In this document: one piece after another, positions 5,411 through 61,634 of the stretch
How the letters are laid out: each line of letters begins with the position of its first letter
How positions within the stretch are numbered: the first letter of the stretch is position 1
From: a virus
Lineage: Duplodnaviria; Heunggongvirae; Uroviricota; Caudoviricetes
Length of the DNA stretch: 64,000 nt
Direction: 5' to 3' (one strand)
IMG/VR virus record: IMGVR_UViG_3300006226_000014
Location: 24,804 to 88,803 of that record
Program-made: the position numbers and the translations under genes
Notes under the pieces: model-generated
Database searches by the model: none
What the model saw: only the letters and a program-made list of their open reading frames with translations
What the model was told of the DNA's origin: nothing

Positions 5411-6025
5411 ATGAATAGAAAAGAATGGAAATTAGCAGTAAAAGAAAAACAGAAAGGAATTTGGGAATTTCGTAATAAAGCAGTCAAATATTTTAACTTA
5501 CAAAAAGGTGAAGTAATTCACCATCTTAGAGATACTGAAGAACAAAGAATCTTTAATGACACTTACTATGAAAGATGGGGTTTTGATCTAAATGGCGAAA
5601 TGAAATATGCTGTAAAATGGGATGCAAAGAAGCACATACAATATCATAGTTCTTCTATAATACATAAAAAATTATCAAGTCAACTAATAACAAAATATAA
5701 TAAATCATTAAAAGGAAAATCTTTAGAAGAAAGACTTGGATATGAAAAAGCAATAGAAGTTAAAAGAAAAATTTCTTTAAAAAGTGCTGGAAAAAATAAT
5801 GGTATGTTTGGAAAAAAACAATCTGAAAATACTAAATTAAAACAAAAAGAAAAAGCATTAAATAGAACTAAAGAACAAATAAAAATTGCCGGTGAACTTT
5901 CTGGAAAAGCAAGATTGGGAAAAAAATATTGGACAAATGGACAAAATCTATATCTTGAGGTTGAATGTCCTAAAGGTTGCTGGAAATATAAAAGACCATT
6001 TAAAGCAAGAAAATTTTTTGATTAA
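5411..6025 (+). CDS. HNH-family homing endonuclease with NUMOD3-like DNA-binding repeats.
   Basis: EVIHHL...H His-rich core. Repeated (G)KK-SEE/N-TK-K-K-A-G modules (NGMFGKKQSENTKLKQKEKALNRTKEQI). Lys/Asn-rich with AAA-heavy codons, unlike its neighbours. Confidence 0.5.
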   Translation: MNRKEWKLAVKEKQKGIWEFRNKAVKYFNLQKGEVIHHLRDTEEQRIFNDTYYERWGFDLNGEMKYAVKWDAKKHIQYHSSSIIHKKLSSQLITKYNKSLKGKSLEERLGYEKAIEVKRKISLKSAGKNNGMFGKKQSENTKLKQKEKALNRTKEQIKIAGELSGKARLGKKYWTNGQNLYLEVECPKGCWKYKRPFKARKFFD

Positions 6026-6030
6026 GCATC

Positions 6031-6083
6031 TTTTGAACGACTAACTCTCTAATCTTATATAATATACGTAAGGGAGATACAGA
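6031..6083 (+). promoter_or_regulatory. Conserved promoter-leader cassette, copy 1 (TTGAAC-N17-TATATAATATA-cGTAAGGGAGAT-ATG).
   Basis: TTGAAC at 6033-6038, TATATAATATA at 6055-6065, SD-containing leader GTAAGGGAGAT at 6068-6078, ATG at 6084. The same module is found at 28931, 50161, 61883 and, in a variant form, at 61561. Confidence 0.6.
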
Positions 6084-6239
6084 ATGAAGGTAATAACTTC
6101 TAAAAACAGACAAACTTGGGTGAATGAGCCCGTCACTATTGACTGGGATAAAGATGACGGACGGATCGTTATTGTTCTCCAAGATGGAACCATAATAACT
6201 GCAACTGACTTCTATCTCACATACAATAAGGATAATTAA
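6084..6239 (+). CDS. Hypothetical small protein (51 aa).
   Basis: ATG lies 5 nt after the conserved leader. Open to TAA 6237-6239. Below the track length cutoff. Confidence 0.45.
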   Translation: MKVITSKNRQTWVNEPVTIDWDKDDGRIVIVLQDGTIITATDFYLTYNKDN

Positions 6240-6240
6240 G

Positions 6241-6648
6241 ATGGCTTTTGATGCACAGAAAGTAGCAGCTGCTAGAAAGATTATTGATGCAGCTCTTAAA
6301 GAAGCTGGACAGATTATTGGTGCCGAAATTAAGATGGGCAACATTCGTTTTAACGACAATATGTTCAGAACCCAGATAACGGCCACCCGTATTGATGGCG
6401 AGACTGGAGAAATTACGGTTGATCCTAACAAAGAGTATAAGGCAAAACGTGCCATTAGTCTTTATAGCGGAAAGCTGGTCAGTCAGAATCGTGTGATAAT
6501 TGGTTCAACTTGCGAAGTAATGGGAATAGGTGAAGTTAGAATTATCGACTTTAACTCCCGTGCCAAAAAGGTGCCTTTCATCGTAGAAACTCCTACCGGA
6601 GTAAAGTACAGAACAGCAGTATCAACTCTTAGATTGCAAGATTTTTAA
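6241..6648 (+). CDS. Hypothetical protein (135 aa).
   Basis: Track ORF with AAGGA SD upstream. Confidence 0.55.
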   Translation: MAFDAQKVAAARKIIDAALKEAGQIIGAEIKMGNIRFNDNMFRTQITATRIDGETGEITVDPNKEYKAKRAISLYSGKLVSQNRVIIGSTCEVMGIGEVRIIDFNSRAKKVPFIVETPTGVKYRTAVSTLRLQDF

Positions 6649-6658
6649 GGAGCAGATT

Positions 6659-6949
6659 ATGCGGAATGTGATTAAAGTCAACTTTACTGGTCCATTTAAC
6701 GGAGCACATATTGCAACTCTTAAGCTTCATGGTTTTACTATCGAAAATGCCAGTGCTAAGGTTGTGGATATAGATCCTAAAGACCCTTCTAAAGGTGTGA
6801 ATGCTTTCTATAACGTAGACATTTACGGTTTGCCCGAAGATTTTGATGACTTTTCTAAAAAATCTTTCAAATGGGCTTATATGCAGGAAGTTGCGAATGG
6901 CGTATCTGCTAAGTTCGCAAATGGTGACTTTGAAGTTATTATGAGGTAG
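6659..6949 (+). CDS. Hypothetical protein (96 aa).
   Basis: Track ORF; SD AAGGAG precedes the ATG. Confidence 0.55.
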   Translation: MRNVIKVNFTGPFNGAHIATLKLHGFTIENASAKVVDIDPKDPSKGVNAFYNVDIYGLPEDFDDFSKKSFKWAYMQEVANGVSAKFANGDFEVIMR

Positions 6950-7095
6950 TTATGCAGGCAATTCATTGGGCTGTAAGAATGAATGTCGTTTATATCGTTT
7001 ATCTCTGTGGAGATGATTATGTAATCTTTAAGAATAACTTCTTTTGGGAGGTAACAAACAGTTTAGATTCAGCTAAGCAGTTAATATACTAATTA

Positions 7096-7399
7096 AAAGG
7101 TAGTAAAACCTCTTCTGTGTAAAAGGCGATAAGCTCTCCCGGGTTAATGACTGAAAGTTAGATCAAGGGCAAAATCAAGAGTTACGGGCTGGAGTATAAA
7201 ATTACTAGGTCAAACTCGACAGCTGACCGAATTAAAGAAAGTCGATGGAATGAGGTTCAAAGTAGCCTATTTTAAAAAGCGGGAGGCATACGGCTTACCT
7301 CAGTAAAGATGAGCCGCCTTTTAACTCTCCGTGGGTTAGTTAGTATACCGCCAGTTTTGGGAACTGGAGATCGTTGGGGCAGAGCCAACCGGGGAGATT
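7096..7399 (+). other. About 300 nt of structured, relatively GC-rich non-coding sequence upstream of the endonuclease gene; candidate leader or ncRNA.
   Basis: No ORF. Several stable hairpins: CGGCTTA/TGAGCCG 7299-7316, CCAGTT-ttggg-AACTGG 7350-7367, GTTGG/CCAAC 7373-7389, TCGAC/GTCGA 7214-7244. Ends in SD GGGGAGATT immediately before ATG 7400. Confidence 0.3.
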
Positions 7400-8086
7400 A
7401 TGATCTGTGAGAAATGCGGAAAAGAAAATGATGGTTCTTATGGATCAGGAAGATTTTGTTCTTCTTTTTGTGCAAGAAGTTTTTCTTCTAATAAAACAGA
7501 TGATATAAAAAGAAAAATTGGAAAAGGTGTTTCTAATTCAGAAATTTATTGGAATTCAGTTGAAAGAAGATATGGAAATAATACTGGAATAAAACAACCA
7601 TTAAAAGTTCCATGTAAAACTTGCGGAACTGAAATAGGAAGAAGAACTAAAACAGGTTTATGTTCAACTTGTTTAAGACAAACAGATGAATATAAAAATA
7701 AAATGAAAGAATTAAGAAAAAAGGAAATTGAAGCAGGAACTTTTAAAGGTTGGCAAAGTAGAAATATATTATCTTATCCTGAAAAATTTTGGATAAAAGT
7801 TTTAAAAAATAATGATATTTCTTTTAAAGGACCTAATATTAAAGTTGGAAAATATTTTTTAGATTTTCTAATTGAAATAAATGAAATTAAAATAGATTTA
7901 GAGATAGACGGTAAACAACATGAATATGAAGATAGAAAAGAAAATGATAAAAGAAGAGATGAATATTTAGAATCTTTATCTTATATAATATACAGAATAT
8001 CTTGGAATGAGATAAACTCTGATCAAGGTAAATTAAAAATGAAAAAGAAAATATCAGATTTTCTTAAATTCATTAAAATTTTTTGA
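7400..8086 (+). CDS. Mobile endonuclease: N-terminal zinc ribbons plus a C-terminal Vsr/DUF559-like PD-(D/E)xK nuclease domain (EDxHD-type homing endonuclease-like).
   Basis: Several CxxC pairs (CEKCG, CKTCG, CSTCL). C-terminal motif YFLDFLIE...IDLEIDGKQHEYEDRK...RRDEYLESLSYIIYRISWNEI matches the DUF559 E-x-DG-x-x-H ... D-x-x-R ... R pattern. Free-standing and AAA-rich. Confidence 0.5.
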   Translation: MICEKCGKENDGSYGSGRFCSSFCARSFSSNKTDDIKRKIGKGVSNSEIYWNSVERRYGNNTGIKQPLKVPCKTCGTEIGRRTKTGLCSTCLRQTDEYKNKMKELRKKEIEAGTFKGWQSRNILSYPEKFWIKVLKNNDISFKGPNIKVGKYFLDFLIEINEIKIDLEIDGKQHEYEDRKENDKRRDEYLESLSYIIYRISWNEINSDQGKLKMKKKISDFLKFIKIF

Positions 8087-8098
8087 GGAGCTAATTAT

Positions 8099-8470
8099 AT
8101 GGCGACAAGATCACTTATTAATGTTGAATGTTCTGATAATAAAGTCAGATCAATTTATGTTCACTGGGACGGTGATAGTCACCTTCCTATTCTGAAGAAA
8201 CATTACAACTCTCAGGAAGATGCAGAGGCGCTTATCTCATTAGGCGATCTCTCTTCGCTCAATGAGAGACTTTCTCCGCGAATGGGCGAACGTCATTCTT
8301 TCGATAAGCCGCTCTCAGATGTTTGTGTTGCTTATGGTAGGGATCGTGGTGAAGATGATTGTGAAGCAAGAGAATTTGATTCACTTGAAGCTGCCAGGAA
8401 GCAAGACAGATGCCAAGCTTTCATTTATGAATGGCAGAATGGAAAGTGGACCAAAAAGAAAGGTTATTGA
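8099..8470 (+). CDS. Hypothetical protein (123 aa).
   Basis: Track ORF; SD GAGGAG 8 nt upstream of the ATG. Confidence 0.55.
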   Translation: MATRSLINVECSDNKVRSIYVHWDGDSHLPILKKHYNSQEDAEALISLGDLSSLNERLSPRMGERHSFDKPLSDVCVAYGRDRGEDDCEAREFDSLEAARKQDRCQAFIYEWQNGKWTKKKGY

Positions 8471-8477
8471 CCGATAT

Positions 8478-8550
8478 TCCCCGGTCATCCAATTGGTTAG
8501 GATGCAAGACTTTGACTCTTGACATGGGGGTTCAAATCCTCCCTGGGGAA
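8478..8550 (+). tRNA. tRNA-Gln (anticodon UUG), 73 nt, no encoded CCA.
   Basis: Manual cloverleaf. Acceptor TCCCCGG/CTGGGGA with one G-U pair. D arm ATCC-aattggtta-GGAT. Anticodon arm CAAGA-cTTTGac-TCTTG with U33 and anticodon TTG. Variable loop acat. T arm GGGGG-TTCAAAT-CCTCC. Discriminator A. Confidence 0.8.
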
Positions 8551-8656
8551 ATAAAGAATGAGCAAATCGTAGCTCTTCTTAAATATTGCAAGAGAACACC
8601 ATCGTTGTATTGGAAAGCTTCTGCAATTCGTCTTATATTATATATAAGGAAACAAA

Positions 8657-22810: not shown

Positions 22811-23299
22811 ATGATACTGTTTGAAAGAGTGTACGCTAAATCATTAGAAGGAAAAGGAGAATACAAACAACCTTTTCGAGATGTATTAAAGTTTGCTCAA
22901 AATTATTTCAAACGGAACTTTATAGATAAGACCTTTCAAACTAAAGAAGGACGAGATATCAAAATAACAGAAAGAGGATTTAATGAACTTTTCTTTTCGA
23001 TAGTAGAAGCTATGAGAGGAGGAGATAAGGGAGCTGCTGAAGTTTTTAAGTCTAGAGCTGATGATGAAGATTATTGGTATGATGTTCTTTCTATTGTGGT
23101 AGAATTAGATGACATAATTGCTGATATGGATTTTGAATATCAGAAGCCTAACTATAAGCAAAACAAAAAGCCAAATGTTCTGAAATATGTAACATTTTCT
23201 AGTGAGGTTGAATTAGATGGCGAATTACATAATGTTATGATTAGAATAGAAGTCCCACATGAGGGCAAACCAAGATACTACTTTCATTATATAGATTAA
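22811..23299 (+). CDS. Hypothetical protein (162 aa).
   Basis: Track ORF; ATG preceded by AACTAACTAAT with no SD. Confidence 0.5.
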   Translation: MILFERVYAKSLEGKGEYKQPFRDVLKFAQNYFKRNFIDKTFQTKEGRDIKITERGFNELFFSIVEAMRGGDKGAAEVFKSRADDEDYWYDVLSIVVELDDIIADMDFEYQKPNYKQNKKPNVLKYVTFSSEVELDGELHNVMIRIEVPHEGKPRYYFHYID

Positions 23300-28930: not shown

Positions 28931-28985
28931 ATTTTGAACAGATAAATTATCTTTCTTATATAATATAAGTAAGGGAGATTAAAGA
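28931..28985 (+). promoter_or_regulatory. Conserved promoter-leader cassette, copy 2.
   Basis: TTGAAC at 28934-28939, N17, TATATAATATA, aGTAAGGGAGATT, ATG at 28986. Confidence 0.6.
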
Positions 28986-39529: not shown

Positions 39530-39875
39530 TAGTAGTACAAGTAGTTTTATTATTATTGGACTACGAATAGATGATGAACTTAAGAAAAAGTTTGAAGCTT
39601 ATGCAATTAATAATGAATTAAGAGAGTGCTTTTATCAAAATGAATTTAATGTTGTAGATTTCGCAGAACAATTTGATTTAGATTGTGAATCAGATAATGA
39701 AGGCGATACTTACAATATTGGTGTAGACATAAATACAAGTGGAGAAGAATGGCTAGAGTATTCTGCTAATTCTTGGAAAGAACTTATTGAAAATGAAAAG
39801 ATTAAGAAGTTATTAGAACTCTCTGATAAAACAGCAGATGATCTACTAATTATTACTGGAACAGAAGCTTGTTAG
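39501..39875 (+). CDS. GFVSNSSSSSF-leader family member 6 (124 aa).
   Basis: MKKRTGFVSNSSTSSFIII. The ATG at 39501 is chosen over the track start at 39492 to match the other family members. Confidence 0.65.
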   Translation: MKKRTGFVSNSSTSSFIIIGLRIDDELKKKFEAYAINNELRECFYQNEFNVVDFAEQFDLDCESDNEGDTYNIGVDINTSGEEWLEYSANSWKELIENEKIKKLLELSDKTADDLLIITGTEAC

Positions 39876-40055
39876 CCTTTTGACAACTAAAGGCTTTAAC
39901 CTAAAAGGTTGTAGATTTTGACTCTCTATAGTCCGTCAAAAAGCGTAGAGAGTAAAGACCGAGGTGCACGGTCGCTAAATATACAGCATCGGTCTCTATG
40001 AGAAAGGAGACGGGGATTGTACAATGAGAAAAACAGTCCCCAATTTTTTTTTATT
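39874..40055 (+). other. Structured non-coding region of 180 nt; candidate small RNA or terminator array.
   Basis: Five tandem hairpins: AGCCTTT/AAAGGCT 39874-39895; CTCTCTA/TAGAGAG 39923-39953; GACCG/CGGTC 39957-39973; GTCTC/GAGAC about 39992-40011; GGGGA/TCCCC 40012-40041. A T9 run follows at 40044-40052. Confidence 0.35.
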
Positions 40056-40259
40056 ATGATACAAAAATCTATCTCTTTAGAAGTTTTCAAATGTCTCGAA
40101 TGTAATGCTGTTATAGTATGTAATCCTTCAGCTCATGGACGGCCCGCTGTATGTGATAAGTGCGGTGTACCAGCAAATGTGGAATTAACTCAAGAACAGC
40201 GAACTCAAATGGAAAGAATGCAACAGCAAGGTCCAAGAGTTCATACTATTAGGTTTTAA
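40056..40259 (+). CDS. Small zinc-ribbon protein (67 aa).
   Basis: ATG 40056 after the T-run. CLEC ... CDKC. The track start at 40017 is TTG. Confidence 0.45.
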   Translation: MIQKSISLEVFKCLECNAVIVCNPSAHGRPAVCDKCGVPANVELTQEQRTQMERMQQQGPRVHTIRF

Positions 40260-40261
40260 GA

Positions 40262-40966
40262 ATGTGGAAATATCAGAAGTATTTAGACAAAGAATTTATA
40301 GATAAGTTCACTCAAGATTTAACAGATGACTTATATAACAAGAAAGATATCAAATCAATACAAAGCAAATATAGTCAACGACTCAAACGAAAAATAGATG
40401 TTTTATTCTCTTTAGAACTCATAACTAAAAATCCAAAAGTTAAGCTCTCCGGTAAAAAGGAGTACTTCAATAAAGTCTTAAAGATTGCTAGACGAAAATA
40501 TATTGGTGATGCTTGTTATGATTGGGATAAGAAAATCTGCATTCAAATAACATATTTTGGCTATTTAGCAATGAAACACAAAGTTGACAAAGAGATGTTC
40601 AGAGCTATGCTGCATGATACTTTTGTTCACGAACTAACACATGCTTTTCAACATAAGTCACGAAAAGTAAGTTTGCGCTTATCTGGTGACTTAGGAGATT
40701 TTGATGAACGAACTGATCCTAAAGTTGATAAGAAATGGAAAGCATATCTTTCGGACCAGGCTGAATTAGAAGCCTGGGCAGCAGGAATGGCTGCATTTTT
40801 AGAAAAACGATATAAGAACAAAGGGATAGCATATCGAGCTATTTCGTCTGGTAAAGTAGCAAAATTTCCAGTCAGATGGAATTTCATTTTGAACAAATAT
40901 GCTAATATGAATAAGAAAGTATTTAATGAATTCTTATATCATGTGTATACTTATCTTTACAGTTAA
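40262..40966 (+). CDS. Putative zinc metallopeptidase (HExxH).
   Basis: FVHELTHAFQH; 234 aa. Confidence 0.4.
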   Translation: MWKYQKYLDKEFIDKFTQDLTDDLYNKKDIKSIQSKYSQRLKRKIDVLFSLELITKNPKVKLSGKKEYFNKVLKIARRKYIGDACYDWDKKICIQITYFGYLAMKHKVDKEMFRAMLHDTFVHELTHAFQHKSRKVSLRLSGDLGDFDERTDPKVDKKWKAYLSDQAELEAWAAGMAAFLEKRYKNKGIAYRAISSGKVAKFPVRWNFILNKYANMNKKVFNEFLYHVYTYLYS

Positions 40967-40975
40967 TATATCATA

Positions 40976-41611
40976 ATGAAAATAATAGAAGCCTCAACAG
41001 AAATCATCTATCCTTCAAAGCTTTCAGAATGGTTAAAAGAAGTCAAATTGATAGAATTAGCTGCACGGAATTGTTACAAATCAGAAGACAAAATAACTGA
41101 TAACAGTTGGAAGAAAATGGTCAAAAAGCTTATAGAACTTAATCACGGAGCAATGCTAGAATTCGGTAACTTTATATGTCGTATCATTACAGACCGTGGT
41201 GTAACCCATGAATTAGTAAGACATCGATTAGCATCTTATGCACAAGAATCTACACGTTATTGTAATTACAGTCAAGATAAATTTAACAATGAACTCACAT
41301 TTGTTAAGCCATCTCAAGTATTGGCCTATGAAGGTAGTGCCGCTGAAAATGGTTGGCTAAGATCAATGGAACATGCCGAAAATTCTTACTTACATCTTAT
41401 TCAGAATAACTGTTCTCCTCAACAGGCTAGATCAGTATTACCAAATAGTCTTAAGACTGAAATCATAATGAAATGTAATTGGAGAGAACTTATGTACATT
41501 ATCAAATTACGAACATCACCAGCAGCTCATCCTGATATTGTGAAAGTCTTCAAAGACATTCAAGCTAAAGTTCAAAAAGCTATGCCAGAAGTATTCGCAG
41601 TAGAATGTTAA
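40976..41611 (+). CDS. thyX: Flavin-dependent thymidylate synthase ThyX.
   Basis: ThyX motif LVRHRLASYAQESTRY (RHR-x7-STRY). Confidence 0.7.
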   Translation: MKIIEASTEIIYPSKLSEWLKEVKLIELAARNCYKSEDKITDNSWKKMVKKLIELNHGAMLEFGNFICRIITDRGVTHELVRHRLASYAQESTRYCNYSQDKFNNELTFVKPSQVLAYEGSAAENGWLRSMEHAENSYLHLIQNNCSPQQARSVLPNSLKTEIIMKCNWRELMYIIKLRTSPAAHPDIVKVFKDIQAKVQKAMPEVFAVEC

Positions 41612-41821
41612 TATAATAATAACTTACTACCCTGACGTATTATTTCCGGAGGGAGATAATCTGCAGCGAAAGGAGTTTTTTGAACAAAACGGATGAAGAA
41701 AACAGTCCGGGGATCAGGCGGGATGCGGAATACAGGCCCGCTTGCCCATTTTTAACTAAATAATATAAGCAGTATCGCGAAAGGTTATTGCTTCATATAC
41801 TTAAAACGCTAGGAGGGTTTT
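41612..41821 (+). promoter_or_regulatory. GC-rich structured leader upstream of hsp20; candidate RNA regulatory element.
   Basis: About 50% GC against a 35% background. GCGGG/CCCGC and CCGGA/TCCGG stems. SD CTAGGAGGG at the 3-prime end. Confidence 0.3.
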
Positions 41822-42691
41822 ATGAACACAAAAGAGAAATTCACAAATTTTGTCAATTCTGTCTCATCTATTTCACCAGATGATTCTATGCATCAAAGAG
41901 TGCTATCTAATGGAGATATTGAACTCGATATGCCAGATGGAATGGGCGGAAGAGCAAAGGCCGTTTTTAGTACATCACCTACTATAGGGAGAGAAGTTAC
42001 TTATTGGGGTGGATATAACGACGGCAATTTTAATGGAGAGAGCCAACATTATTGGAATGGAGATACTAGTATTCAGACATTTCCTAATACTGTGACTAGT
42101 CCAGATTATGCACCAGGTGGATATGGAAGTGGTGGTAATGGTAATTCTGAACATTGGGTGTTGCCCAACAAACAGTCAGGCTGGAGTAGAACTCATGACC
42201 ATACAATTGTGGGTAGTCCTGATTATGACCGTATTAACATTAAGAAAAAGATTGAAGAATTAGAAAAGTCTATCGAAAAAGTTGTACCTAACAAAATAGA
42301 TAAAGACTTAATAGACACAAAGATTCCTTACAATGTCAAAAAAGACTTAGATGCTAATTTGATCTATATGTTTGCTATTGCTGGTTACAAAGAGAACCAA
42401 ATAGAATTAGTAATGAAGAAAGATGGTCTTCTTCTCAAACTTAAATCAGCACCAGACGACAATGACTTAATAGGCGAAGGCTTTGAGTACTTATGTCATG
42501 GCATAAAAGATAGCGAACAAGAAGTTGGCATCTATTTAGACGTTGACGAATACGAAACAGCCAACTCAGAAGTAGAATTAGACAATGGCATCTTACAGAT
42601 CTTCATACCCAGACGTAAAGAACTGAAGAACAGAATCAAAGTCAAAGCTAAGCCGACTGTAAAAAAGAAGATTGACTTCGAGTTAATCTAA
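41822..42691 (+). CDS. Small heat-shock protein (Hsp20/alpha-crystallin domain) with an N-terminal extension.
   Basis: C-terminal alpha-crystallin domain: DANLIYMFAIAGYKENQIELVMKKDGLLLKL ... LDNGILQIFIPRRKE. Confidence 0.6.
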   Translation: MNTKEKFTNFVNSVSSISPDDSMHQRVLSNGDIELDMPDGMGGRAKAVFSTSPTIGREVTYWGGYNDGNFNGESQHYWNGDTSIQTFPNTVTSPDYAPGGYGSGGNGNSEHWVLPNKQSGWSRTHDHTIVGSPDYDRINIKKKIEELEKSIEKVVPNKIDKDLIDTKIPYNVKKDLDANLIYMFAIAGYKENQIELVMKKDGLLLKLKSAPDDNDLIGEGFEYLCHGIKDSEQEVGIYLDVDEYETANSEVELDNGILQIFIPRRKELKNRIKVKAKPTVKKKIDFELI

Positions 42692-42695
42692 TCAT

Positions 42696-44783
42696 ATGGG
42701 ATTTCAATTTGGAAGCGTCCGACAGCAAGAAAAACCTCGGCAAAACTTACAGAAATTTGACAGTTTACTAAAAGAGCATTGGCAACCAGGTAGCAAGTAC
42801 TATCTGTTTGTAGTTGATAATGTCATTAGTAAGACACATTTAGACATATTAGCAAAAGATATCGAAAAGCATTACATAACGTCATACAACATCGTATCGG
42901 CTATTTCAGTAAAAGATCCAACTAATGATTCTACTGATTCGCTACTATCGTATGAAAGTAACTGGCGGCAATATTTAACATTCAATGATACACCAGCACA
43001 CTGCATAATAGCATTTGGCTCCGTTATCCGTATTCTTAACAGATCCGGTGATGTTACTTACTATGACTTCTTCGATGATAAGTTCAATGATCCGCGATAC
43101 TATTGTGGCAGCGAATTTGTTGATGGTCCAAACAAGTGGATCTATCCAGTAGCACCGGTCAAAGAACTATATCCAGTTCATATCAATAATGATCCAACTA
43201 ATATGCTCACTAGATTCTTTAGAGAGAAACTAGAACGCATACAGCGTGATGATATGTCTACTGACTCATTAGATGTTAGACCATATCAAATCCACTATAT
43301 CGACACAAAAGAGGAAACATCAAAAAGCTTACAGTTACTAATGAATGCTGAACTTTTGGCACTTGATACAGAAACAGATGGCTTAGACTTTCTTGTCAAT
43401 AAGTTAGGCACTGTGCAACTATCAGTTGATGGTGAGAATAGTTATGTGTTTGATTGGGAGAATGTAGATAAGCGCATCTTTAAGAAAGTACTAACAACAG
43501 CAACTCGTATCACATTAGCAAATGCTAAGTTCGATGTTAAGTTCATTTGGAAGAATGGAGTAACTGGATGGTACCCAACAGATGATACGGTGCTCTTGTC
43601 TCATGCGATCAACTCTAATCGTTCTAAGGGTTTGAAGCCAGGTGCAATTTTCTATTGCGGTAAGTTCACAGGATATGATGATGAATTAGACAAAGCGAGA
43701 AAGCAACTCAAGGTTGACAACTTCTTACAAATACCAAAACAGATATTGATCAAATATGCTGGATTAGATGCAATAGTAACTTGGCGAGTTCAAAAAGCTC
43801 TCGATAAGCATGTGGCTTGGGTTGATAAGATGTACCCAAATGAAAAGCTTAAAGAATGGACAATAGAAAGATGGTACCGTGAAGTGATGATCCCAAATGC
43901 TAATACTGTAACGGATGTAGAATTTGAAGGCATTTACTTCGATAAGGATCAATTCGCCATTTCGGAAAAGATCATAGTAGAAAAGATTGCCTCATTGAAA
44001 GATGAACTTAGCAAACTTTGGAATGTGCCAACTACATTTAAGTTCGAGTCAACTAAAGAGCTCGGCTTATTGTTCAAGAGAATGGGTTGGCCGGAAATAG
44101 ACACTGCAAAAGATGGTGGTTACAAAACATCTGATACAGTACTTACTGAATATGAACTATTAGAAAAGGATGCCAAACTGAAAGCTAAGGGCATCAACAT
44201 ATGCGGCATTAAGACATTGAAAGATCTTCGTTCATACAATGTAGCGTTGAAGACATTCATCAATGGATGGAGAGAATGGCTCAGACGGCATCCGGATGGT
44301 TCATGGCGGATTCATCCATCATGCAATACGTTTGGTACTGAATCATATCGTCACGCAATGAGAGATCCAAACTTCCAACAAATACCGAGTGGAAGCACAA
44401 TAGCGCCCCACATTAAGAAACTGTTCACAGTACCAGATAAGAATGATTGGCTATTAGTGAACGCCGACTTTAGATCTTTGCAGTTGATATTAGCATTTTG
44501 TGATTGTGGTATCAATAAGAATGGTGTTGATCCGATTGCTTATAAGATCTATGGACAAGGTGGAACACAAGATGCTCACTCAATGACGACACATAGTGTC
44601 TTTTGTGAACCAGTTCATTTAGAAATCATAGAGATAGAAGATGATGATGGTAATAAGATCATTTTTGGTGAAGAACAGAAGATTAAGATTCTACGAAAAG
44701 GACTTATTGATGATAATGAAGAACTTGTCATTAAGGGTGCTGAGTTCCAAGCAGATGATGTCTTTGTGGAGTACGTATTATGA
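42696..44783 (+). CDS. Family A DNA polymerase, N-terminal part (3-prime to 5-prime exonuclease domain and polymerase through motif A).
   Basis: Exo I LALDTETDGLD. Motif A LLVNADFRSLQLIL. O-helix-preceding DAHSMTTHSVF. Then about 65 aa without homology before the stop. Confidence 0.8.
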   Translation: MGFQFGSVRQQEKPRQNLQKFDSLLKEHWQPGSKYYLFVVDNVISKTHLDILAKDIEKHYITSYNIVSAISVKDPTNDSTDSLLSYESNWRQYLTFNDTPAHCIIAFGSVIRILNRSGDVTYYDFFDDKFNDPRYYCGSEFVDGPNKWIYPVAPVKELYPVHINNDPTNMLTRFFREKLERIQRDDMSTDSLDVRPYQIHYIDTKEETSKSLQLLMNAELLALDTETDGLDFLVNKLGTVQLSVDGENSYVFDWENVDKRIFKKVLTTATRITLANAKFDVKFIWKNGVTGWYPTDDTVLLSHAINSNRSKGLKPGAIFYCGKFTGYDDELDKARKQLKVDNFLQIPKQILIKYAGLDAIVTWRVQKALDKHVAWVDKMYPNEKLKEWTIERWYREVMIPNANTVTDVEFEGIYFDKDQFAISEKIIVEKIASLKDELSKLWNVPTTFKFESTKELGLLFKRMGWPEIDTAKDGGYKTSDTVLTEYELLEKDAKLKAKGINICGIKTLKDLRSYNVALKTFINGWREWLRRHPDGSWRIHPSCNTFGTESYRHAMRDPNFQQIPSGSTIAPHIKKLFTVPDKNDWLLVNADFRSLQLILAFCDCGINKNGVDPIAYKIYGQGGTQDAHSMTTHSVFCEPVHLEIIEIEDDDGNKIIFGEEQKIKILRKGLIDDNEELVIKGAEFQADDVFVEYVL

Positions 44784-47220: not shown

Positions 47221-47904
47221 ATGAATTATAGAGAAATATATCTAAAAATAATTATTAGTACTCAAAAACAAAATAGAAAAAAAGTTCGTGGTAAAAATCA
47301 ATACTATTATGAAAAACATCATATATTACCGAAATCTTTATTTCCTTTATGGAAAGATAGAAAAAGTAATTTAGTTATTTTAACCGCTAGAGAACATTTT
47401 TTCTGTCATCAATTATTATGTAAAATCTATCCGTCAAGATCAATGTATAATGCATTATGGCGATTATCAACTGATGGAAGAAGAAAAATAACTTCAAAAG
47501 AATATGAAAGAATAAAAATTAAAAGATCTGAATTATTATCTCAAAAAAGAGGATATAAAAGACCACCTTTTTCAGAACAATGGAAACAAAATATAAAATT
47601 AGGAAGACAAAAACAAATAATAACAGATGAACACAAACAAAAAATTAGTGATTGGGCAACAAAATGTAAATGGTATAATAATGGAATAAAAGAAACTTTT
47701 TGTGAAATAATGCCAAAAGGTTATAAAGTTGGAAGATTACCTGGCTTAAATAACACTAAAAAAGTATTTTGTGTAGAATTAAATAAATCATTTAATAGTT
47801 TAAAAGAAGCTTCATTAGTTACAGGAGCAAACTATACTAAAATATGTGAAGTATGTAGAGGTTCACGAAAACAGTCTGGTGGCTATACTTGGAAATACAT
47901 TTAA
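47221..47904 (+). CDS. HNH homing endonuclease with NUMOD-type DNA-binding modules.
   Basis: YYYEKHHILPKSLF ... SNLVILTAREHFFCHQ (HNH). SEQWKQNIKLGRQ and TDEHKQKISDWA (NUMOD3-like). C-terminal GANYTKICEVCRGSRKQSGGYTWKYI. Very AT-rich and free-standing. Confidence 0.7.
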   Translation: MNYREIYLKIIISTQKQNRKKVRGKNQYYYEKHHILPKSLFPLWKDRKSNLVILTAREHFFCHQLLCKIYPSRSMYNALWRLSTDGRRKITSKEYERIKIKRSELLSQKRGYKRPPFSEQWKQNIKLGRQKQIITDEHKQKISDWATKCKWYNNGIKETFCEIMPKGYKVGRLPGLNNTKKVFCVELNKSFNSLKEASLVTGANYTKICEVCRGSRKQSGGYTWKYI

Positions 47905-48497: not shown

Positions 48498-49286
48498 ATG
48501 AGAAAAATAGCACTAATATTGTTGGCTTTTTGCTTATTTGCATGCCAACGCGACGGTTTAACGATAAAGAACGGTGTTCTAACAGTAGGAGTAGAGGCTA
48601 ACTATCCGCCTATGGAGTATTTGACACCTTACGGAGAGTTCATTGGCTTTGATATTGATTTAGCTAGAGCACTCGGAAAGAAACTCGATTTAGAAGTTAG
48701 ATTTGTCAACACTAAATGGAACAGTATCTTTACTGAATTAAGTATGAGACGCTTCGATGTCATCATTTCAAGTGTTAGCATTTTGCCAGAGAGGGAATTA
48801 AGTTATGCTTTTTCTAAGCCATATTTAGAAAACTCGCTCAGCTTGATTGTCAATAAGAATGCCGACATAAAGCCAACCACATTAAAAGAGTTAGTTGGAT
48901 TACGTATTGCATATCAAGCTGAAACATCAACAGATCATCTATTACATCAGTGGGCTCGAGATAACGATGTTCAATTAGATTGTAACCCGCACTTTAGAGT
49001 TGACTCTTGCTTAGGTGCATTACAAAATGGACAAGTTGATGTTGTCATTATTGACGGAATAGTAGCATATGAATACTTACGCTATTTGAACTTTGATGAT
49101 AGATTTGAAATGTCAGGAGTTATCTTTAATGAAGACTTACTCGGTGTTTGTATGCTACAAGACAACCCCGAACTATTAGAACTTGTCAACTCCGCGCTCA
49201 AAGAACTCAAAACAGAAGGCATTTTAGAACAACTCTCTTATAAGTACTTTAATCAGAATTTGATTAGAGATTGCTTAACTCACTAA
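48498..49286 (+). CDS. Lipoprotein: amino-acid ABC-transporter substrate-binding protein (family 3 SBP).
   Basis: Signal and lipobox LLAFCLFAC. GVEANYPPMEY ... GFDIDLARALGKKL ... VIIS fits the polar amino-acid SBP family. Confidence 0.65.
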   Translation: MRKIALILLAFCLFACQRDGLTIKNGVLTVGVEANYPPMEYLTPYGEFIGFDIDLARALGKKLDLEVRFVNTKWNSIFTELSMRRFDVIISSVSILPERELSYAFSKPYLENSLSLIVNKNADIKPTTLKELVGLRIAYQAETSTDHLLHQWARDNDVQLDCNPHFRVDSCLGALQNGQVDVVIIDGIVAYEYLRYLNFDDRFEMSGVIFNEDLLGVCMLQDNPELLELVNSALKELKTEGILEQLSYKYFNQNLIRDCLTH

Positions 49287-50160: not shown

Positions 50161-50242
50161 ATTTTGAACATCTAATCTTTCCATCTTATATTATATATGT
50201 AAGGGACAATGAAATCCCAATATATCTTAAGGAGATAAGAAG
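50161..50242 (+). promoter_or_regulatory. Conserved promoter-leader cassette, copy 3 (extended leader).
   Basis: TTGAAC at 50164-50169, N17, TATATTATATA, tGTAAGGGAC, a second SD AAGGAGAT, ATG at 50243. Confidence 0.55.
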
Positions 50243-50626
50243 ATGAGAAAAGAACTGATTGACAGAGTCGAAAACACTTTTGGAGCCGTCATTGCAGACG
50301 TGCAGAAGAACCCCAAGAACCTGCGTGAAGCTCAGGCGCTGATCCGAGATCAGACCAAGCTGTTTCGTGAGCAGGCTGCAGCTGCTTATACGGCGTCCGT
50401 CGCTGCCCGGAAGGAAGAAAGGGCTGCTAAGCGTGAAGCTAAGGCCACTGCCATTACTGAGGCCCGTACTGCCCGTGATGAAGCCAAGGCCAAGTTCGCG
50501 GCTGCTCTCGCTATCAAGGTGAACGGAAATGTCGCCAAGAAACGTGCGAAGAAAGCCGGACCTGTGCAGATGGAACTGCCGATTTTGCCTGAACCAACCG
50601 AAACTGGGGAAGCAGATATATTCTAA
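50243..50626 (+). CDS. Ala/Lys/Arg-rich basic protein (histone H1-like low complexity) encoded by GC-rich DNA.
   Basis: About 53% GC with CTG/GCC/CGT codons, unlike the genome. Flanked by its own promoter cassette and a hairpin terminator. Confidence 0.55.
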   Translation: MRKELIDRVENTFGAVIADVQKNPKNLREAQALIRDQTKLFREQAAAAYTASVAARKEERAAKREAKATAITEARTARDEAKAKFAAALAIKVNGNVAKKRAKKAGPVQMELPILPEPTETGEADIF

Positions 50627-50677: not shown

Positions 50678-51352
50678 ATGAAAAGAATGATGTTGTTAAT
50701 GTTGACAGTAATTGTACTGTCTGGGTGTCCGACTCCTACTGGTGGAAATGGAAACGGTGATGATGATCCTATTCACACCCACAGTTGGGGAGAATGGTTT
50801 GTAACTGGAAATAACACAGTCCCGGCTACGTGTGTTGATTATGAACAAATAGAATGGAGAAGGAATTGTAGTAATTCTCCAACTCATTTTGAAGTTGAAA
50901 TGAGAAATGGTGACAGTCCAAATGTAAATTATCATAATGGAACAACTTCAAATAGTAGTTCTGTTCGGTGTCGAGATTGTTCAACCTTTATAGATTGGTC
51001 AGATTCCTTAGATTGGTCTAGTCCCTTGTCATATTGGAAAAATGATGATGGTGATTATTTAGGGTTTGGTTATCAAACTTCTCCAGGAGAAGGAACTTCT
51101 GCGTTTATTACATCAACCACTGGTTTAACTCCTGGGTTAGAGTTTTACAGATTAATTAATCTTACTGAAAATACATTTACATTAAAATATTTAAATCCCA
51201 ATCAGGGATATCCAAATATGTGGGGTAATGAATCCTATACTATTGAATATGAATTCGGACCTGGAGACGATGAAATTACAATAATTGATTTTGGTAGTTT
51301 TCCTTTTCCAATTCCGACTGGAGTTTACGAAAAATGGGATAGAATTTATTAA
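50678..51352 (+). CDS. Lipoprotein (224 aa).
   Basis: Signal and lipobox MLLMLTVIVLSGC. Gly/Asn/Thr-rich body with several Cys. Confidence 0.55.
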   Translation: MKRMMLLMLTVIVLSGCPTPTGGNGNGDDDPIHTHSWGEWFVTGNNTVPATCVDYEQIEWRRNCSNSPTHFEVEMRNGDSPNVNYHNGTTSNSSSVRCRDCSTFIDWSDSLDWSSPLSYWKNDDGDYLGFGYQTSPGEGTSAFITSTTGLTPGLEFYRLINLTENTFTLKYLNPNQGYPNMWGNESYTIEYEFGPGDDEITIIDFGSFPFPIPTGVYEKWDRIY

Positions 51353-51364
51353 AAATAACTTCTA

Positions 51365-51396
51365 CAGCCCCGGCTTCTCGGCCGGGGCTTTTTATG
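51365..51396 (+). terminator. Rho-independent terminator, possibly bidirectional between convergent genes.
   Basis: AGCCCCGGC-ttctc-GCCGGGGCT followed by TTTTTATGTTT. Confidence 0.65.
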
Positions 51397-51422: not shown

Positions 51423-52733
51423 CTAATCAATTGATTCTTCTATGTCACTTATTCCAAAAGTATCTATCAAATACTTTTCTAACTCTCCACTGTTTTTAAA
51501 CATCATTCCTTGAAACTCAAACGGTCGTTTTATGTCTCCTTGTTCTAGATAATCGTACATCAGATTCAAGTTCATCTTTCCGTCTTTATTCGTAATTGAA
51601 GTTACATCTAACTCAAACATATCACCTTGTCTAATCATAAAGTCTTCTTTGTCTATATCTAAATCATCGAATTCGTGTCTGTCAAATGAGTGTGGTCTAG
51701 TGTTATTTATTGGGTGTTGTTTGAATGTGTCTATGTCTTCAGATTCAGAAATATCCCATAATGGTTCATTTGGATCAAACGGTCTAACTGGTCGGTATAT
51801 AGTTTCTCTTTTATTGTCGTATCTAATTATCTGTATGTTCTCTGGGTTGAATACAAATATATTACCGACACCATTTTCTTCTGAAACGTAACCGTCATAA
51901 TTTAGCTTACGAACAATATCAGTGATCATAGGATTTTCCATTTGACTCCATTTATGAGTTCTAAATACTTCTGTTAGTTCACTTTGCAAAGTTCTATACA
52001 CTGCGCCAGGTTGCTTCATAGCAAAATTGAAGAAAAACTCTCTAGGATTCTTTCTCACTTCAGTCAAAAAAGCTGTTCTGTCTTTTCGACTACCTGGATT
52101 AAATAGATTAAGTGGCTTAGTCAATAAACATCGATATAGGTAATATTCATCTTGCCGGAACTTATCCATGAGATAGTCTCTTAAGTAGTCATTGATCATT
52201 ACTAATTTAGGTGTTAGAAAAGTGCCGCCGTATGATACATCAGTGCCTCTAAAGCGATTACGTTTTTCGAACTTAGTGAACTTATTAGGAGATATATGAT
52301 AGTAAGACTTTCCAGTTCGATAGATTTGTTCAAATAACTGTGACTCCTTAATTGTGTTGGGCTTCAATGCGACATAAGTGTCTGCCACTACTTTTGGGTC
52401 TTTTACATTTTCTATAACTAATCCGTCATGGTCATTCTCATAAGCCATTAAGGATAACTTATCAGAATTGTATCTTTTTCCATCTATTTGTATGTCATGA
52501 TAATCAGCACCTTCCGCATCAATGATCATTGGGTCATCAAATTCTAATTCATTTTTAATGACTTTTCCATCACCATACCATTCAGCAACTTCTGGATCTG
52601 ATGTGTACCATTTTCCTACAGACTTTTTTGAAGTGATCTTATCAAATTCTCCAGGTTCCCAGAAGTTTTTGCCGTCATCACTTCCTCCTGACATTCCACG
52701 ATAACCAGTATAGATTTCTTCAAATAGTTTCAT
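51423..52733 (-). CDS. Hypothetical 436-aa protein with an MKLFEEIY leader.
   Basis: Track ORF; SD AGGAAAG. Confidence 0.55.
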   Translation of the reverse strand: MKLFEEIYTGYRGMSGGSDDGKNFWEPGEFDKITSKKSVGKWYTSDPEVAEWYGDGKVIKNELEFDDPMIIDAEGADYHDIQIDGKRYNSDKLSLMAYENDHDGLVIENVKDPKVVADTYVALKPNTIKESQLFEQIYRTGKSYYHISPNKFTKFEKRNRFRGTDVSYGGTFLTPKLVMINDYLRDYLMDKFRQDEYYLYRCLLTKPLNLFNPGSRKDRTAFLTEVRKNPREFFFNFAMKQPGAVYRTLQSELTEVFRTHKWSQMENPMITDIVRKLNYDGYVSEENGVGNIFVFNPENIQIIRYDNKRETIYRPVRPFDPNEPLWDISESEDIDTFKQHPINNTRPHSFDRHEFDDLDIDKEDFMIRQGDMFELDVTSITNKDGKMNLNLMYDYLEQGDIKRPFEFQGMMFKNSGELEKYLIDTFGISDIEESID

Positions 52734-57184: not shown

Positions 57185-57940
57185 TTAGTGAGAAGAGTTA
57201 GAATTGGCATGCAGAGCTTTAGCATCTGAGTTAACCCGGTCAACAGCGGACAATAGTTTAGATGACACTTCAATAGTTTCTAAATAAGTTAAGAATGATG
57301 GCACATCTTTGTTGAAGCAGTGACTGTCATAATAGGGCTTATCTGGATAGACAAAAGTATGTGACGGACCAACTCTCTCGTCTGCAACAAAGAGTTCCCT
57401 AAGCTCGGGATAAGCTACACCTATTTTGTCTGCTATCTTATTGAACTCAGCACAGAATGTCACCTTCATTGCTAAATAACAGTTCAGCATGTATTTAGAA
57501 AGTTCAGCTGTTTCTAATGTTGTAAAGATGCATCTAAATGAACCTGTCTTAACTCGTGAGTAAAGTTCAGCTACTTTTGCAGTATCTCCCCTATTGCCTC
57601 CCAGAATAACGAAATTAGGAGTTGGCGCATGTTGTGTACTTCCATAGTGTTCGGGAGAGAACACAACATTTGGTCCAAGTTTCGCGCATGTTCCAGGTGG
57701 CACTGTTGATTTGACTACATAGATACTAGCACTTATGTTTTGTATCGACTGTTCTACTATTGAAGTATCGCAGCCATTCTTGTGGTCAGTTGGCACACAA
57801 ATGAAGGCAAAATCGTAGTGTCCTTCATATGTGCTGTCTTTTATGAGTGGATCATATATTGTGGGCTTTAAGTTATGGAATTCTTGTTCTATGTGCTTAC
57901 CGACTACTCCATAACCAACTATAAGTATTCGGTAGTTCAT
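57185..57940 (-). CDS. UDP-glucose/GDP-mannose 6-dehydrogenase family protein, truncated (lacks the C-terminal UDP-binding domain).
   Basis: ILIVGYGVVGK Rossmann fold. FAFICVPTD, VVKSTVPPGT, VVFSPEH, FTTLETAELSKYMLNCYLAMKVTFCAEFN and YYDSHCFNKD align with E. coli Ugd [53 protein letters not shown] and GGYCLPKD. Confidence 0.7.
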   Translation of the reverse strand: MNYRILIVGYGVVGKHIEQEFHNLKPTIYDPLIKDSTYEGHYDFAFICVPTDHKNGCDTSIVEQSIQNISASIYVVKSTVPPGTCAKLGPNVVFSPEHYGSTQHAPTPNFVILGGNRGDTAKVAELYSRVKTGSFRCIFTTLETAELSKYMLNCYLAMKVTFCAEFNKIADKIGVAYPELRELFVADERVGPSHTFVYPDKPYYDSHCFNKDVPSFLTYLETIEVSSKLLSAVDRVNSDAKALHANSNSSH

Positions 57941-61560: not shown

Positions 61561-61634
61561 ATTTGATTCAATTAAAAATAAATCTTATATATTATAATAA
61601 GGAGGAGTAACATGTTGTAAATAGGAGATTATTT
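61561..61634 (+). promoter_or_regulatory. Variant copy of the conserved promoter module.
   Basis: TTGATT at 61563-61568, N17, TCTTATATATTATAATAAGGAGG; ATG at 61635. Confidence 0.45.

Follow-up and report, generated by a model that had tools for sequence, protein, structure and literature searches.

The stretch of DNA analysed here, referred to as the window, comprises 64,000 nt of a virus of the Caudoviricetes (positions 24,804 to 88,803 of the IMG/VR record IMGVR_UViG_3300006226_000014) and carries four copies of a block of about 55 bases, the cassette, which is laid out like a promoter followed by a short leader and lies directly before genes. The window is part of a 90,449-bp metagenomic contig (ena:ERZ27257348:k141_859843), identical fragments of which were found in two other samples. 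The phage encodes a DNA polymerase A, an ATP-dependent DNA ligase, RNA ligases, ThyX, sugar-nucleotide enzymes and a TET-associated glycosyltransferase, with giant adhesin-like proteins just left of the window. A nucleotide search against 50,697 GenBank phage records returned no relative, and the DNA polymerase is at most 27% identical to that of any of them. The relatives used for comparison include a 198.6-kb IMG/VR contig (L005), whose polymerase is 68% identical, and a 329-kb contig (L017/L037).

The four copies have the form TTGAAC-N17-TATATWATATA-NGTAAGGGA in common (Table 1). Each consists of TT, the hexamer TTGAAC at the -35 position, a 17-nt spacer that ends in TCT, a near-palindromic 11-mer at the -10 position (TATATAATATA in copies 1, 2 and 4, TATATTATATA in copy 3), one free base and GTAAGGG. 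In copies 1, 2 and 4, the free base is followed by GTAAGGGAGAT and, 5–7 bases later, by the ATG of the next gene, the whole distance from -35 to ATG being about 53 nt. The leader of copy 3 is longer and contains a small GGGA...TCCC stem-loop (50203–50218) and a separate Shine-Dalgarno (SD) sequence, AAGGAGAT (50229–50236). Copy 4 is distinguished by a spacer segment, ATCTCCCTT (61898–61906), that is the exact reverse complement of its SD sequence AAGGGAGAT (61924–61932); this complementarity makes a stretch of 35 bp around the -10 region nearly palindromic, with the palindromic TATATAATATA at its centre.

Table 1. Cassette copies, related sites, gene-start motifs and other features of the window
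Feature	Position	Strand	Description
Cassette copy 1	6031–6083	+	TT and TTGAAC (6033–6038), spacer GACTAACTCTCTAATCT, TATATAATATA (6056–6066), C, GTAAGGGAGAT (6068–6078), ACAGA, ATG at 6084
Cassette copy 2	28932–28985	+	TTGAAC (28934–28939), spacer AGATAAATTATCTTTCT, TATATAATATA (28957–28967), A, GTAAGGGAGAT, TTAAAGA, ATG at 28986
Cassette copy 3	50162–50242	+	TTGAAC (50164–50169), spacer ATCTAATCTTTCCATCT, TATATTATATA (50187–50197), T, GTAAGGGA, ATG at 50243
Cassette copy 4	61885–61938	+	TTGAAC (61887–61892), spacer ATCTAATCTCCCTTTCT, TATATAATATA (61910–61920), T, GTAAGGGAGAT, TAAATA, ATG at 61939
Related but distinct promoter-like site	61561–61634	+	TTGATT (61563–61568), N17, TATATATTATAAT (61586–61598), SD AAGGAGGAG (61599–61607)
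Mini-ORF	61612–61620	+	ATG-TTG-TAA, two codons
Weak sixth variant	8611–8656	+	TGGAAA (8611–8616), N17, TATATTATATA (8634–8644), TAAGGAAAC, ATG at 8657; E = 0.03
-10-only copy	7980–7992	+	CTTATATAATATA, without -35 and without GTAAGG; inside the 3' end of ORF 7400–8086
Strong intrinsic terminator	51366–51389	+	10-bp stem with 8 G-C pairs, then a T run; closes the copy 3 unit
Strong intrinsic terminator (hairpin)	50654–50633	-	
aACTAAYTAnTATG motif starts	4896, 5400, 16189, 22800, 33820, 47210, 48487, 49282, 59347	+	
aACTAAYTAnTATG motif starts	59339, 57189, 54508, 48477, 37898, 28786, 21271	-	
aGTTAAT(C/A)TA motif	5144, 29311, 32555, 37896, 38160, 40962, 42682, 44930, 63217	+	
aGTTAAT(C/A)TA motif	21679	-	
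Endonuclease-type gene	5411–6025	+	NUMOD3
Endonuclease-type gene	7400–8086	+	DUF559/MTES_1575
Endonuclease-type gene	47221–47904	+	I-HmuI-like NUMOD
tRNA-Gln(UUG)	8477–8551	+	Called by ARAGORN and Rfam
tRNA-like match	7325–7397	+	Rfam 44 bits, not called by ARAGORN
DNA polymerase A, first ORF	41822–42691	+	289 aa, exonuclease-containing
DNA polymerase A, second ORF	42696–44783	+	695 aa, polymerase
Lipoprotein gene	48498–49286	+	SBP_bac_3 solute-binding protein
Lipoprotein gene	50678–51352	+	Lipobox signal peptide
Gene for a 59% homologue of P0002	51423–52733	-	436 aa
LPD3 gene	22811–23299	+	LPD3 "polyvalent protein" domain
Sugar-nucleotide and glycosyltransferase genes, with neighbours	57185–57940	-	
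Sugar-nucleotide and glycosyltransferase genes, with neighbours	60749–61558	+	

We searched the window for the exact pattern TTGAAC-N14-TCTTATATWATATANGTAAGGGA, with 100 dinucleotide-preserving shuffles as the null, and obtained four matches without mismatches, all on the plus strand, against 0.00 expected by chance. Together with a direct reading of the sequence, this confirms the repeated block described in the initial annotation. A profile built from 12 family members scored the same four copies at E = 1e-11 to 2e-15. A fifth copy had been counted at 61563; it scored E = 8 with the profile and is a looser relative of the type TTGATT-N17-TATATA, which also occurs in L005. Two sites that had been missed could be added, namely a weak variant between the tRNA-Gln gene and the following gene, and a copy of the -10 block alone that probably stands outside the cassette class. 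Copies 3 and 4 had been said to be identical over 19 nt upstream of -35; what they actually have in common is the 20-mer AGATTTTGAACATCTAATCT, which runs from 5 nt upstream of the -35 hexamer through the hexamer to the ninth nt of the spacer. Past the SD sequence AAGGAGGAG, the looser site continues with a mini-ORF (open reading frame), a second SD sequence, ATAGGAGAT, and the ATG at 61635. The mini-ORF has its own strong SD sequence, lies between the promoter-like site and the gene start, and may be a start-stop or leader-peptide element.

All four copies are intergenic and oriented with the next gene. Copy 1 begins 7 nt past the stop codon of a NUMOD3 homing-endonuclease gene and heads a plus-strand block of about 10.5 kb (6084–16641) with an RNA ligase gene and many small genes. 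Copy 2 is situated between divergent genes, in an intergenic region of 210 nt, at the head of a plus-strand replication and nucleotide-metabolism block of about 22 kb, which starts at 28986 and includes the genes for the ATP-dependent DNA ligase and DNA polymerase A, among others. Copy 3 has the position of an internal promoter before two genes (50243–50626 and 50678–51352) that are closed by a strong intrinsic terminator, and only this copy forms a self-contained unit of promoter, two genes and terminator. Copy 4 and the looser site at 61563 precede small ORFans. The two terminators in Table 1 are the only strong intrinsic ones in the window, and strand blocks are otherwise very long (window 1–64000), with genes abutting or overlapping. 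Blocks on the minus strand lack the cassette; they start with another motif, aACTAAYTAnTATG, often in back-to-back divergent pairs.

The initial annotation had each cassette driving a small, moron-like gene or gene pair. This does not hold in general, since copies 1 and 2 head long polycistronic blocks, and the term "moron-like" fits at most the second gene of the copy 3 unit. That gene encodes a predicted lipoprotein, is absent from L017 and L005, and is a candidate superinfection-exclusion moron. For the genes that immediately follow the cassettes, Pfam searches returned nothing informative, the one match being a sub-threshold HK97-gp10-like one for 6241–6648.

The cassette is a property of a phage family rather than of the window. 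A scan of IMG/VR with the -10 block and leader found four further sites, all of which have TTGAAC exactly 17 bp upstream and flanks unrelated to the window. Scanning for TTGAAC-N17-TATAWWATATANGTAAGG returned 22 sites in IMG/VR and 22 stretches in metagenome contigs, and zero matches in 596 Gb of bacterial and archaeal genomes; a host-genome promoter or a prophage element was rejected on this last result. In total there are 44 unique sites, distributed over about 20 contigs of uncultivated phages, the longest of 329 kb. Of about 45 occurrences of the 11-mer in the related DNA collected, 42 are part of a full cassette and are preceded by TTGAAC at a distance of exactly 17 bp; TTGAAC itself is invariant in 41 of about 45 sites. 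An ATG-initiated ORF in the same orientation starts 6–51 nt (median 20.5) past the conserved G at position 13 (G13) in 40 of the 44 sites. The first downstream gene is usually small, and the upstream ORF often ends 1–9 nt before -35 without a terminator between.

Two large clades can be distinguished, which have TTTTGAAC, the 17-bp distance, TATATWATATA and NGTAAGG in common and differ elsewhere. In the clade of the window (clade A), GTAAGG runs on as GGGAGAT and forms the SD sequence, 5–7 nt before ATG. In clade B, which is made up of contigs of sample 3300020048, the SD sequence lies 8–15 nt further downstream and GTAAGG is still invariant, indicating that GTAAGG is conserved as a start-site or initially transcribed region rather than for ribosome binding. 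The conserved sequence of clade B further includes AATTCGT..AAAAAGTT upstream and TTTTTnnnAAAAnnTCCTA (TTTTT..AAAA..TCCTA) within the spacer and totals about 60 bp, and clade B cassettes contain an exact TATATATTAT. Clade B contigs carry arrays of cassettes 0.3–2.5 kb apart, each preceding a small ORF. On one of them (L019, IMGVR_UViG_3300020048_000055), tandem cassettes on the minus strand at 7115 and 7000 are 115 nt apart and are followed by about 250–370 nt without an ORF before the next gene. This stretch, which gave no significant Rfam match, could be a long leader or a non-coding RNA.

The spacers follow a different pattern from the invariant elements. The window and two relatives have spacers of the type rwCTAATCT...TCT, the Ga0131853 contigs have AAAAAttCAA..aTCT, and L028, L039 and L044 have TTTTTaGTaCTTTTTCG, while the clade B spacer has fixed and free positions side by side. 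Spacer similarity is greater within a genome than between genomes (permutation p = 0.0004), and the copy 3 locus shows this at a single orthologous place. Copy 3 precedes a conserved Ala/Lys-rich protein of 127–137 aa, and the promoter is found at the orthologous place in L017/L037, L033 and L005, where the flanking proteins are only 43–60% identical. The retention of the site over such divergence indicates that it is old and under selection and not a recent insertion. In the alignment of these orthologues, TTTTGAACA and TCTTATAT..TAT are invariant, and GTAAGG has been lost in L005. Their spacers nevertheless resemble those of paralogues in the same genome: the Ga0131853 copy matches its paralogues at 9–11 of 14 positions and its orthologues at 2–5 of 14. 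Such genome-tracking spacers imply either concerted evolution, by recombination among copies, or co-evolution with a genome-specific factor; the mixture of fixed and free positions in clade B seems to favour position-specific selection over concerted evolution. The L005 orthologue of copy 3 has a further peculiarity, in that its -35 hexamer and spacer (16964–16985) form a perfect 8-bp inverted repeat, GAACATTC-gttt-GAATGTTC, which could be an operator or chance.

These results bear out the proposal of a promoter joined to a leader with an SD sequence, as the module is intergenic, co-oriented, followed by an ORF in 40 of 44 sites and conserved across phages and at an orthologous position. The further suggestion of a portable or spacer-regulated cassette stands only in part. 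The genome-specific spacers agree with it, whereas the orthologous retention speaks for stability and shows no recent mobility.

Other genes of the same phages use different start signals. The motif aACTAAYTAnTATG (class 2) ends in the start codon, lacks an SD sequence and is conserved at orthologous starts; the window contains 11 copies of its relaxed form AACTANNTANTATG, where 0.08 are expected. Clade A phages have 29 unique sites of this motif and clade B has none, and the members of its divergent pairs are often separated by only about 12–26 nt. Its geometry is that of AR9 late promoters, A(-11)AC-N-(6N)-T-A(+1), and it contains the phiKZ late TATG. Class 2 probably yields leaderless mRNAs from a phage-specific promoter. 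A third motif, aGTTAAT(C/A)TA (class 3), is found 12 times in the window against 4.2 expected and is conserved at orthologous starts in L005 and L017. Ten of the 12 lie either 14–16 nt before an ATG without an SD sequence or 25–27 nt before an ATG with AGGAG between, and the embedded TAATmT has A-11 and T-7 spaced for a start on the A of ATG or on the first SD base. Apparently, class 3 and class 2 both give leaderless mRNAs. This use of signals other than the cassette points to separate promoter classes. Two of the three free-standing endonuclease-type genes start with the class 2 motif. The class 3 motif, as GTTAATCTAATCATATG, lies at the junction of the two adjacent ORFs into which DNA polymerase A is split, an arrangement that is conserved in L005.

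Given that the cassette has two conserved elements at a fixed distance, we compared it with the sigma-70 consensus. TTGAAC agrees with TTGACA at four of six positions, the last two bases being mismatches. If the spacer is taken as 17 bp, the -10 hexamer reads TATATA or TATATT, which puts A at the critical -7 position in three of the four window copies; the frame TATAAT/TATTAT, in which A-11 and T-7 are right in all copies, gives a 19-bp spacer. Read as TGAACA-18-TATAAT, the match is 10/12. In a generic sigma-70 scan of the window, the cassettes score 9–10/12 and are among 65 equally good sites, with 59 expected by chance. The earlier description as a strong sigma-70 promoter with optimal spacing was thus overstated. 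On the other hand, a two-part geometry with a fixed 17-bp gap is a hallmark of sigma-70-family recognition, and two conserved purines, G13 and A15, lie where transcription would start in the two possible frames. Host-read phage promoters such as the T4 early promoters and T5 promoters like PN25 have phage-specific hexamers and a conserved spacer and initial transcript. Because they too deviate from the consensus, the weak fit is not disqualifying.

The host is likely a member of the Clostridia, because the closest cellular homologues of the SBP_bac_3 lipoprotein, at 50–56% identity, are found in metagenome-assembled genomes (MAGs) of Clostridia (Eubacteriales Family XIII and Oscillospiraceae). 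Hosts of this type use SD sequences and sigma-A-type promoters.

That the cassette is a promoter of some kind is very probable. Our preferred reading is that the block is a selected, lineage-specific signal, the standard strong promoter of these phages joined to a minimal leader, that it belongs to the early class and that it is read by a sigma-70-family holoenzyme, and we give this full statement a probability of roughly 0.55. A sigma-70-family holoenzyme, most probably the host RNA polymerase with its housekeeping sigma, would bind both elements at the onset of infection. Transcription would start within GTAAGG, at G13 if the hexamer is TATATW with the 17-bp spacer and at A15 if it is TATWAT. 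The 5' end of the mRNA would then lie 0–2 nt before its own SD sequence (AAGGGAG), and the leader would be only 12–17 nt long. With about 53 nt from -35 to ATG, such a signal would fit between tightly packed genes. The cassette would start or boost transcription of the replication and nucleotide-metabolism operons and of small-gene clusters, and the genes found downstream (DNA ligase, DNA polymerase A, RNA ligases, ThyX and many small ORFans) fit early or middle functions. Conservation beyond the hexamers would contribute to the strength of the promoter and the properties of the start site, as it does in other strong early promoters of phages. The genome-specific spacers would reflect either homogenisation of the copies by recombination or co-evolution of the spacer with a phage factor. 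Copy 4 belongs to a minority of copies whose spacer is an anti-SD sequence and could mask the ribosome site on read-through transcripts. Two known promoter types were considered and rejected: a Bacteroidetes-type promoter (TTTG / TAnnTTTG), whose -7 motif is absent while the genes use SD sequences, and a T4 MotA-box middle promoter, which fits in neither sequence nor spacing.

Several observations weigh against the preferred reading. The fit to sigma-70 is mediocre at 9–10/12, and TTGAAC is invariant and never drifts toward TTGACA. At 17 bp, -7 is A in three of four window copies, and a proper TATWAT means a 19-bp spacer. Conservation extends over about 40–60 bp, further than recognition by a housekeeping sigma calls for. 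The -10 block is closely similar to the early promoter of the AR9 virion RNA polymerase, AAATATATATTAT-N6-G, and a second motif in the same genome, that of class 2, resembles the late promoters of AR9 and phiKZ (PMC5312081, PMC7598289). The assembly covers 90 kb of a genome that is probably larger (198–329 kb in relatives), which limits the negative result for a phage polymerase. Finally, the activity of the promoter, its start site, its timing and the polymerase that reads it are predictions from sequence.

One alternative is that the cassette serves a phage-encoded machine, either a multisubunit RNA polymerase that is packaged in the virion or made early, or a sigma-like or appropriator factor of the phage. 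Recognition would then be of the invariant AT-rich 11-mer with a fixed start base 6–7 nt downstream, and TTGAAC would be an extra lineage-specific contact. The early promoters of the Bacillus phage AR9, which are read by its virion RNA polymerase, have the form AAATATATATTAT-(6N)-G (PMC5312081), and early promoters of RNA-polymerase-encoding jumbo phages in general are AT-rich, highly conserved elements of about 10 nt centred at -10, with a conserved start 6 nt downstream (PMC7598289). The cassette 11-mer is very similar to the AR9 consensus, and clade B contains TATATATTAT exactly. The AR9-like and phiKZ-like features of the class 2 motif in the same genomes, the sigma-70 match of only 9–10/12 with its problematic -7 position, the absence of matches in bacterial genomes and the jumbo size of the relatives (174–329 kb) all agree with such a machine. 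However, the virion RNA polymerase promoters known so far lack a -35-like element, whereas TTGAAC at exactly 17 bp is here as invariant as the 11-mer. A six-frame motif search of the window and about 250 kb of related loci found neither DFDGD nor any other RNA-polymerase catalytic signature, although these genomes are incomplete (the assembly is 90 kb and relatives reach 174–329 kb). None of the large ORFs matched a polymerase or a sigma factor in sequence searches of Pfam, PHROG and PDB, and the DNA polymerase (at most 27% identity to any GenBank phage) is unrelated to those of known jumbo-phage groups. On this balance we regard a phage-encoded reader as doubtful. Its most elaborate form, in which the cassette is the early signal of a three-tier phage-specific transcription code together with aGTTAATmTA and aACTAAYTAnTATG (the latter with the geometry of the promoters read by the non-virion polymerases of AR9 and phiKZ), in an undescribed clade of large phages probably infecting Clostridia and read by a phage polymerase, sigma or appropriator, is in our view unlikely. 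The factor would read the -35-like box and an extended -10 block, and the genome-specific spacer would be its co-evolving contact surface.

The genome-specific spacers also raise the question of recombination. The closest published concept is that of the promoter-early stem-loop (PeSL) cassettes of T4-type phages (PMC2839356, Arbiol et al. 2010; PMC4122927, Comeau et al. 2014). By analogy, the copies would be real early promoters whose long common sequence is kept, and made uniform inside each genome, as patches of homology for the insertion, deletion and exchange, by homologous recombination, of the small genes that they flank. The likeness of spacers within a genome (p = 0.0004) and the resemblance of copy 3 orthologues to paralogues in their own genomes are as expected, and the gene content of the copy 3 locus does vary, with an extra promoter and two small ORFs in L005 and an extra lipoprotein gene in the window that L017 and L005 lack. 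The leaders of window copy 1 and of a copy in L048 are identical through the ATG (GGGAGATACAGAATG) while the genes downstream are unrelated, clade B has its closely spaced arrays before small ORFs, and some copies carry a CCC...GGG stem overlapping the -10 region, as in one described PeSL sub-class. Yet copy 3 has stayed at one locus over deep divergence, and the fixed and free positions of the clade B spacer look like position-specific selection and not like tract conversion. The stem-loop is present in only about one third of clade A copies and has no U-tail, so that the terminator half of a PeSL is missing, and the relatives in the comparison are too distant for indel junctions to be mapped to cassettes. 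We therefore entertain a role as recombination linker only tentatively.

A regulated promoter is another way to account for conservation outside the hexamers. The spacer (rwCTAATCT...TCT, or TTTTTnnnAAAAnnTCCTA in clade B) or the near-palindrome at -10 would be the operator of a phage DNA-binding protein that switches the whole class. A lineage-specific spacer consensus with conserved and free positions, spacers that track the genome and not the locus, and the 35-bp near-palindrome of copy 4 are in line with this, and ATCTAAT also occurs within the class 3 gene-start motif GTTAATCTAAT. On the other side, a good palindrome is present in only a few copies, ATCTAAT is just about 2-fold enriched in the window and lies mostly inside genes, and no candidate regulator was identified. 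Spacer composition can, moreover, alter promoter strength without a bound protein. An operator function for the class is accordingly rather unlikely.

The anti-SD sequence of copy 4 suggests a translational gate, in which the pyrimidine-rich spacer folds onto the SD sequence in read-through transcripts and keeps them untranslated, while transcripts initiated at the cassette itself, within the hairpin, are translated. The T4 genes e, soc and I-TevI use such a read-through, SD-masking arrangement. Read-through is to be expected where cassettes abut the upstream gene without a terminator, as they commonly do. In copy 4 the complement is 9/9 and the read-through RNA has a minimum free energy of -17.4 kcal/mol (z = -2.67, equalled by none of 200 shuffles); L002, L003 and L008 give comparable folds, with z = -2.0 to -3.0. 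No such fold forms in copies 1 and 3, however, and only four of 12 clade A copies beat shuffled spacers, with a mean z of -0.9. Cognate and non-cognate pairs of spacer and leader have equal energies (-7.56 and -7.47 kcal/mol). We rejected a family-wide anti-SD role of the spacer on these last two results, and SD masking is at best a copy-specific extra. A gate would also leave the conservation of TTGAAC and the 11-mer unexplained, which makes it an improbable account of the block.

It is hardly credible that the block is a non-promoter, that is, a short dispersed repeat (a miniature mobile element, a homing-endonuclease target, or a packaging or replication signal) that resembles a promoter, for although the repeat is phage-specific and copy 1 directly follows a homing-endonuclease gene, copies 2–4 adjoin no such gene, there are neither terminal inverted repeats nor target-site duplications, the flanking sequences show no relationship right up to the edges of the block, the copies keep a strict orientation and spacing relative to the following start codon (40/44), the block ends in an SD sequence and ATG, and it is retained at orthologous positions.

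Other features of the window are listed in Table 1. The tRNA-like match lies inside a 450-nt structured non-coding gap (6949–7400). Group I introns were considered for this gap and for 39875–41822 and rejected, as Rfam gave no intron match and the tRNA-like match instead. The minus-strand gene at 51423–52733 encodes a protein that is 59% identical to P0002, which carries an ART-PolyVal ADP-ribosyltransferase domain above the Pfam threshold; the N-termini of the two are nearly identical. This protein and the LPD3 protein may be injected effectors, and it is a speculation that an Alt-like modifier of the host RNA polymerase would fit host-dependent early promoters. The sugar-nucleotide and glycosyltransferase genes encode a UDP-glucose dehydrogenase, cytidylyltransferases, the TET-associated glycosyltransferase and a match to the glucosyl-HMC-type transferase family, a gene set that suggests glycosylated, hypermodified DNA bases.

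As a regulatory signal, the cassette is one more case of a familiar type, and its sequence is specific to a phage lineage. Most proteins of the clade have no recognisable homologues, and the promoter class provides a first map of the transcription programme, marking the probable first genes, the operon starts and the genes with other signals. The cassette can also be used as a sequence tag to recruit members of the clade, as its 22 fixed bases had 0 matches in 596 Gb of cellular genomes and occurred in only a handful of metagenomes. The compact design, with about 53 nt from -35 to ATG and the SD sequence at the 5' end of the mRNA, might serve as a small expression part for low-GC Gram-positive hosts if activity is confirmed. 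The genome-specific spacers offer a tractable test case for concerted evolution versus co-evolution with a trans-acting factor. Should the polymerase prove to be phage-encoded, or the three-class, partly leaderless code hold, the interest of the system would rise; the current understanding of phage promoters would change only with a phage-encoded polymerase.

Among known systems, the phages AR9 and phiKZ resemble the cassette genomes in having an invariant AT-rich block of about 11–13 nt near -10 with a conserved purine 6–7 nt downstream, TATATATTAT being common to AR9 and clade B. In both cases the motif is over-represented before early operons and was found bioinformatically, and the short second motif of the cassette genomes resembles the AR9 and phiKZ late promoters. 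In contrast to the cassette, with TTGAAC at 17 bp in 42 of about 45 occurrences of the 11-mer, the promoters of those phages have no -35-like element. Those phages encode multisubunit RNA polymerases (split beta/beta'-like), whereas none was detected in the sequence available here, and AR9 leaders are 26–491 nt long, whereas the leaders predicted here are minimal or absent (PMC5312081, PMC7598289).

The copy 3 unit is like a moron in combining a promoter, one or two genes and a strong terminator, with a second gene, for the lipoprotein, that is found only in the phage of the window. It differs in that its promoter and first gene are core features, orthologous in four genomes, and that 50678–51352 has no promoter of its own. 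Copies 1 and 2, moreover, drive long operons, and the promoter is the phage's own class signal and was not imported with a foreign gene.

PeSLs come close in several respects. They are dispersed, similar intergenic blocks of about 50–100 bp with a sigma-70-like early promoter that ends in an SD sequence and the start codon, often of a small ORFan; their similarity exceeds what a promoter needs, the blocks are tied to differences in gene content among relatives, and in some of them a G/C stem lies over the -10 box, as it does in some cassette copies. The stem-loop of a PeSL terminates or attenuates transcription coming from upstream, and PeSLs border ORFan insertions, deletions or replacements among close relatives and recombine into mini-circles. 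The cassettes, however, lack a consistent stem-loop or terminator, with a significant stem in four of 12 clade A copies and a U-tail in none. PeSL promoters are described as identical to the sigma-70 consensus (PMC2839356, PMC4122927), whereas the cassette match is imperfect. Two window copies head long core operons and not ORFans, and the phage lineage is unrelated, with a host that is probably Gram-positive.

The T4 early promoters and the T5 promoter PN25 differ from the cassette in their unrelated sequences and in leader design, the predicted cassette leader being only about 12–17 nt with the SD sequence at or next to the 5' end. In architecture, the two groups agree: both have bipartite -35/-10 elements with phage-specific hexamers and conservation upstream, in the spacer and in the initially transcribed region, and both occur in many copies for use, inferred in the case of the cassette, at the onset of infection.

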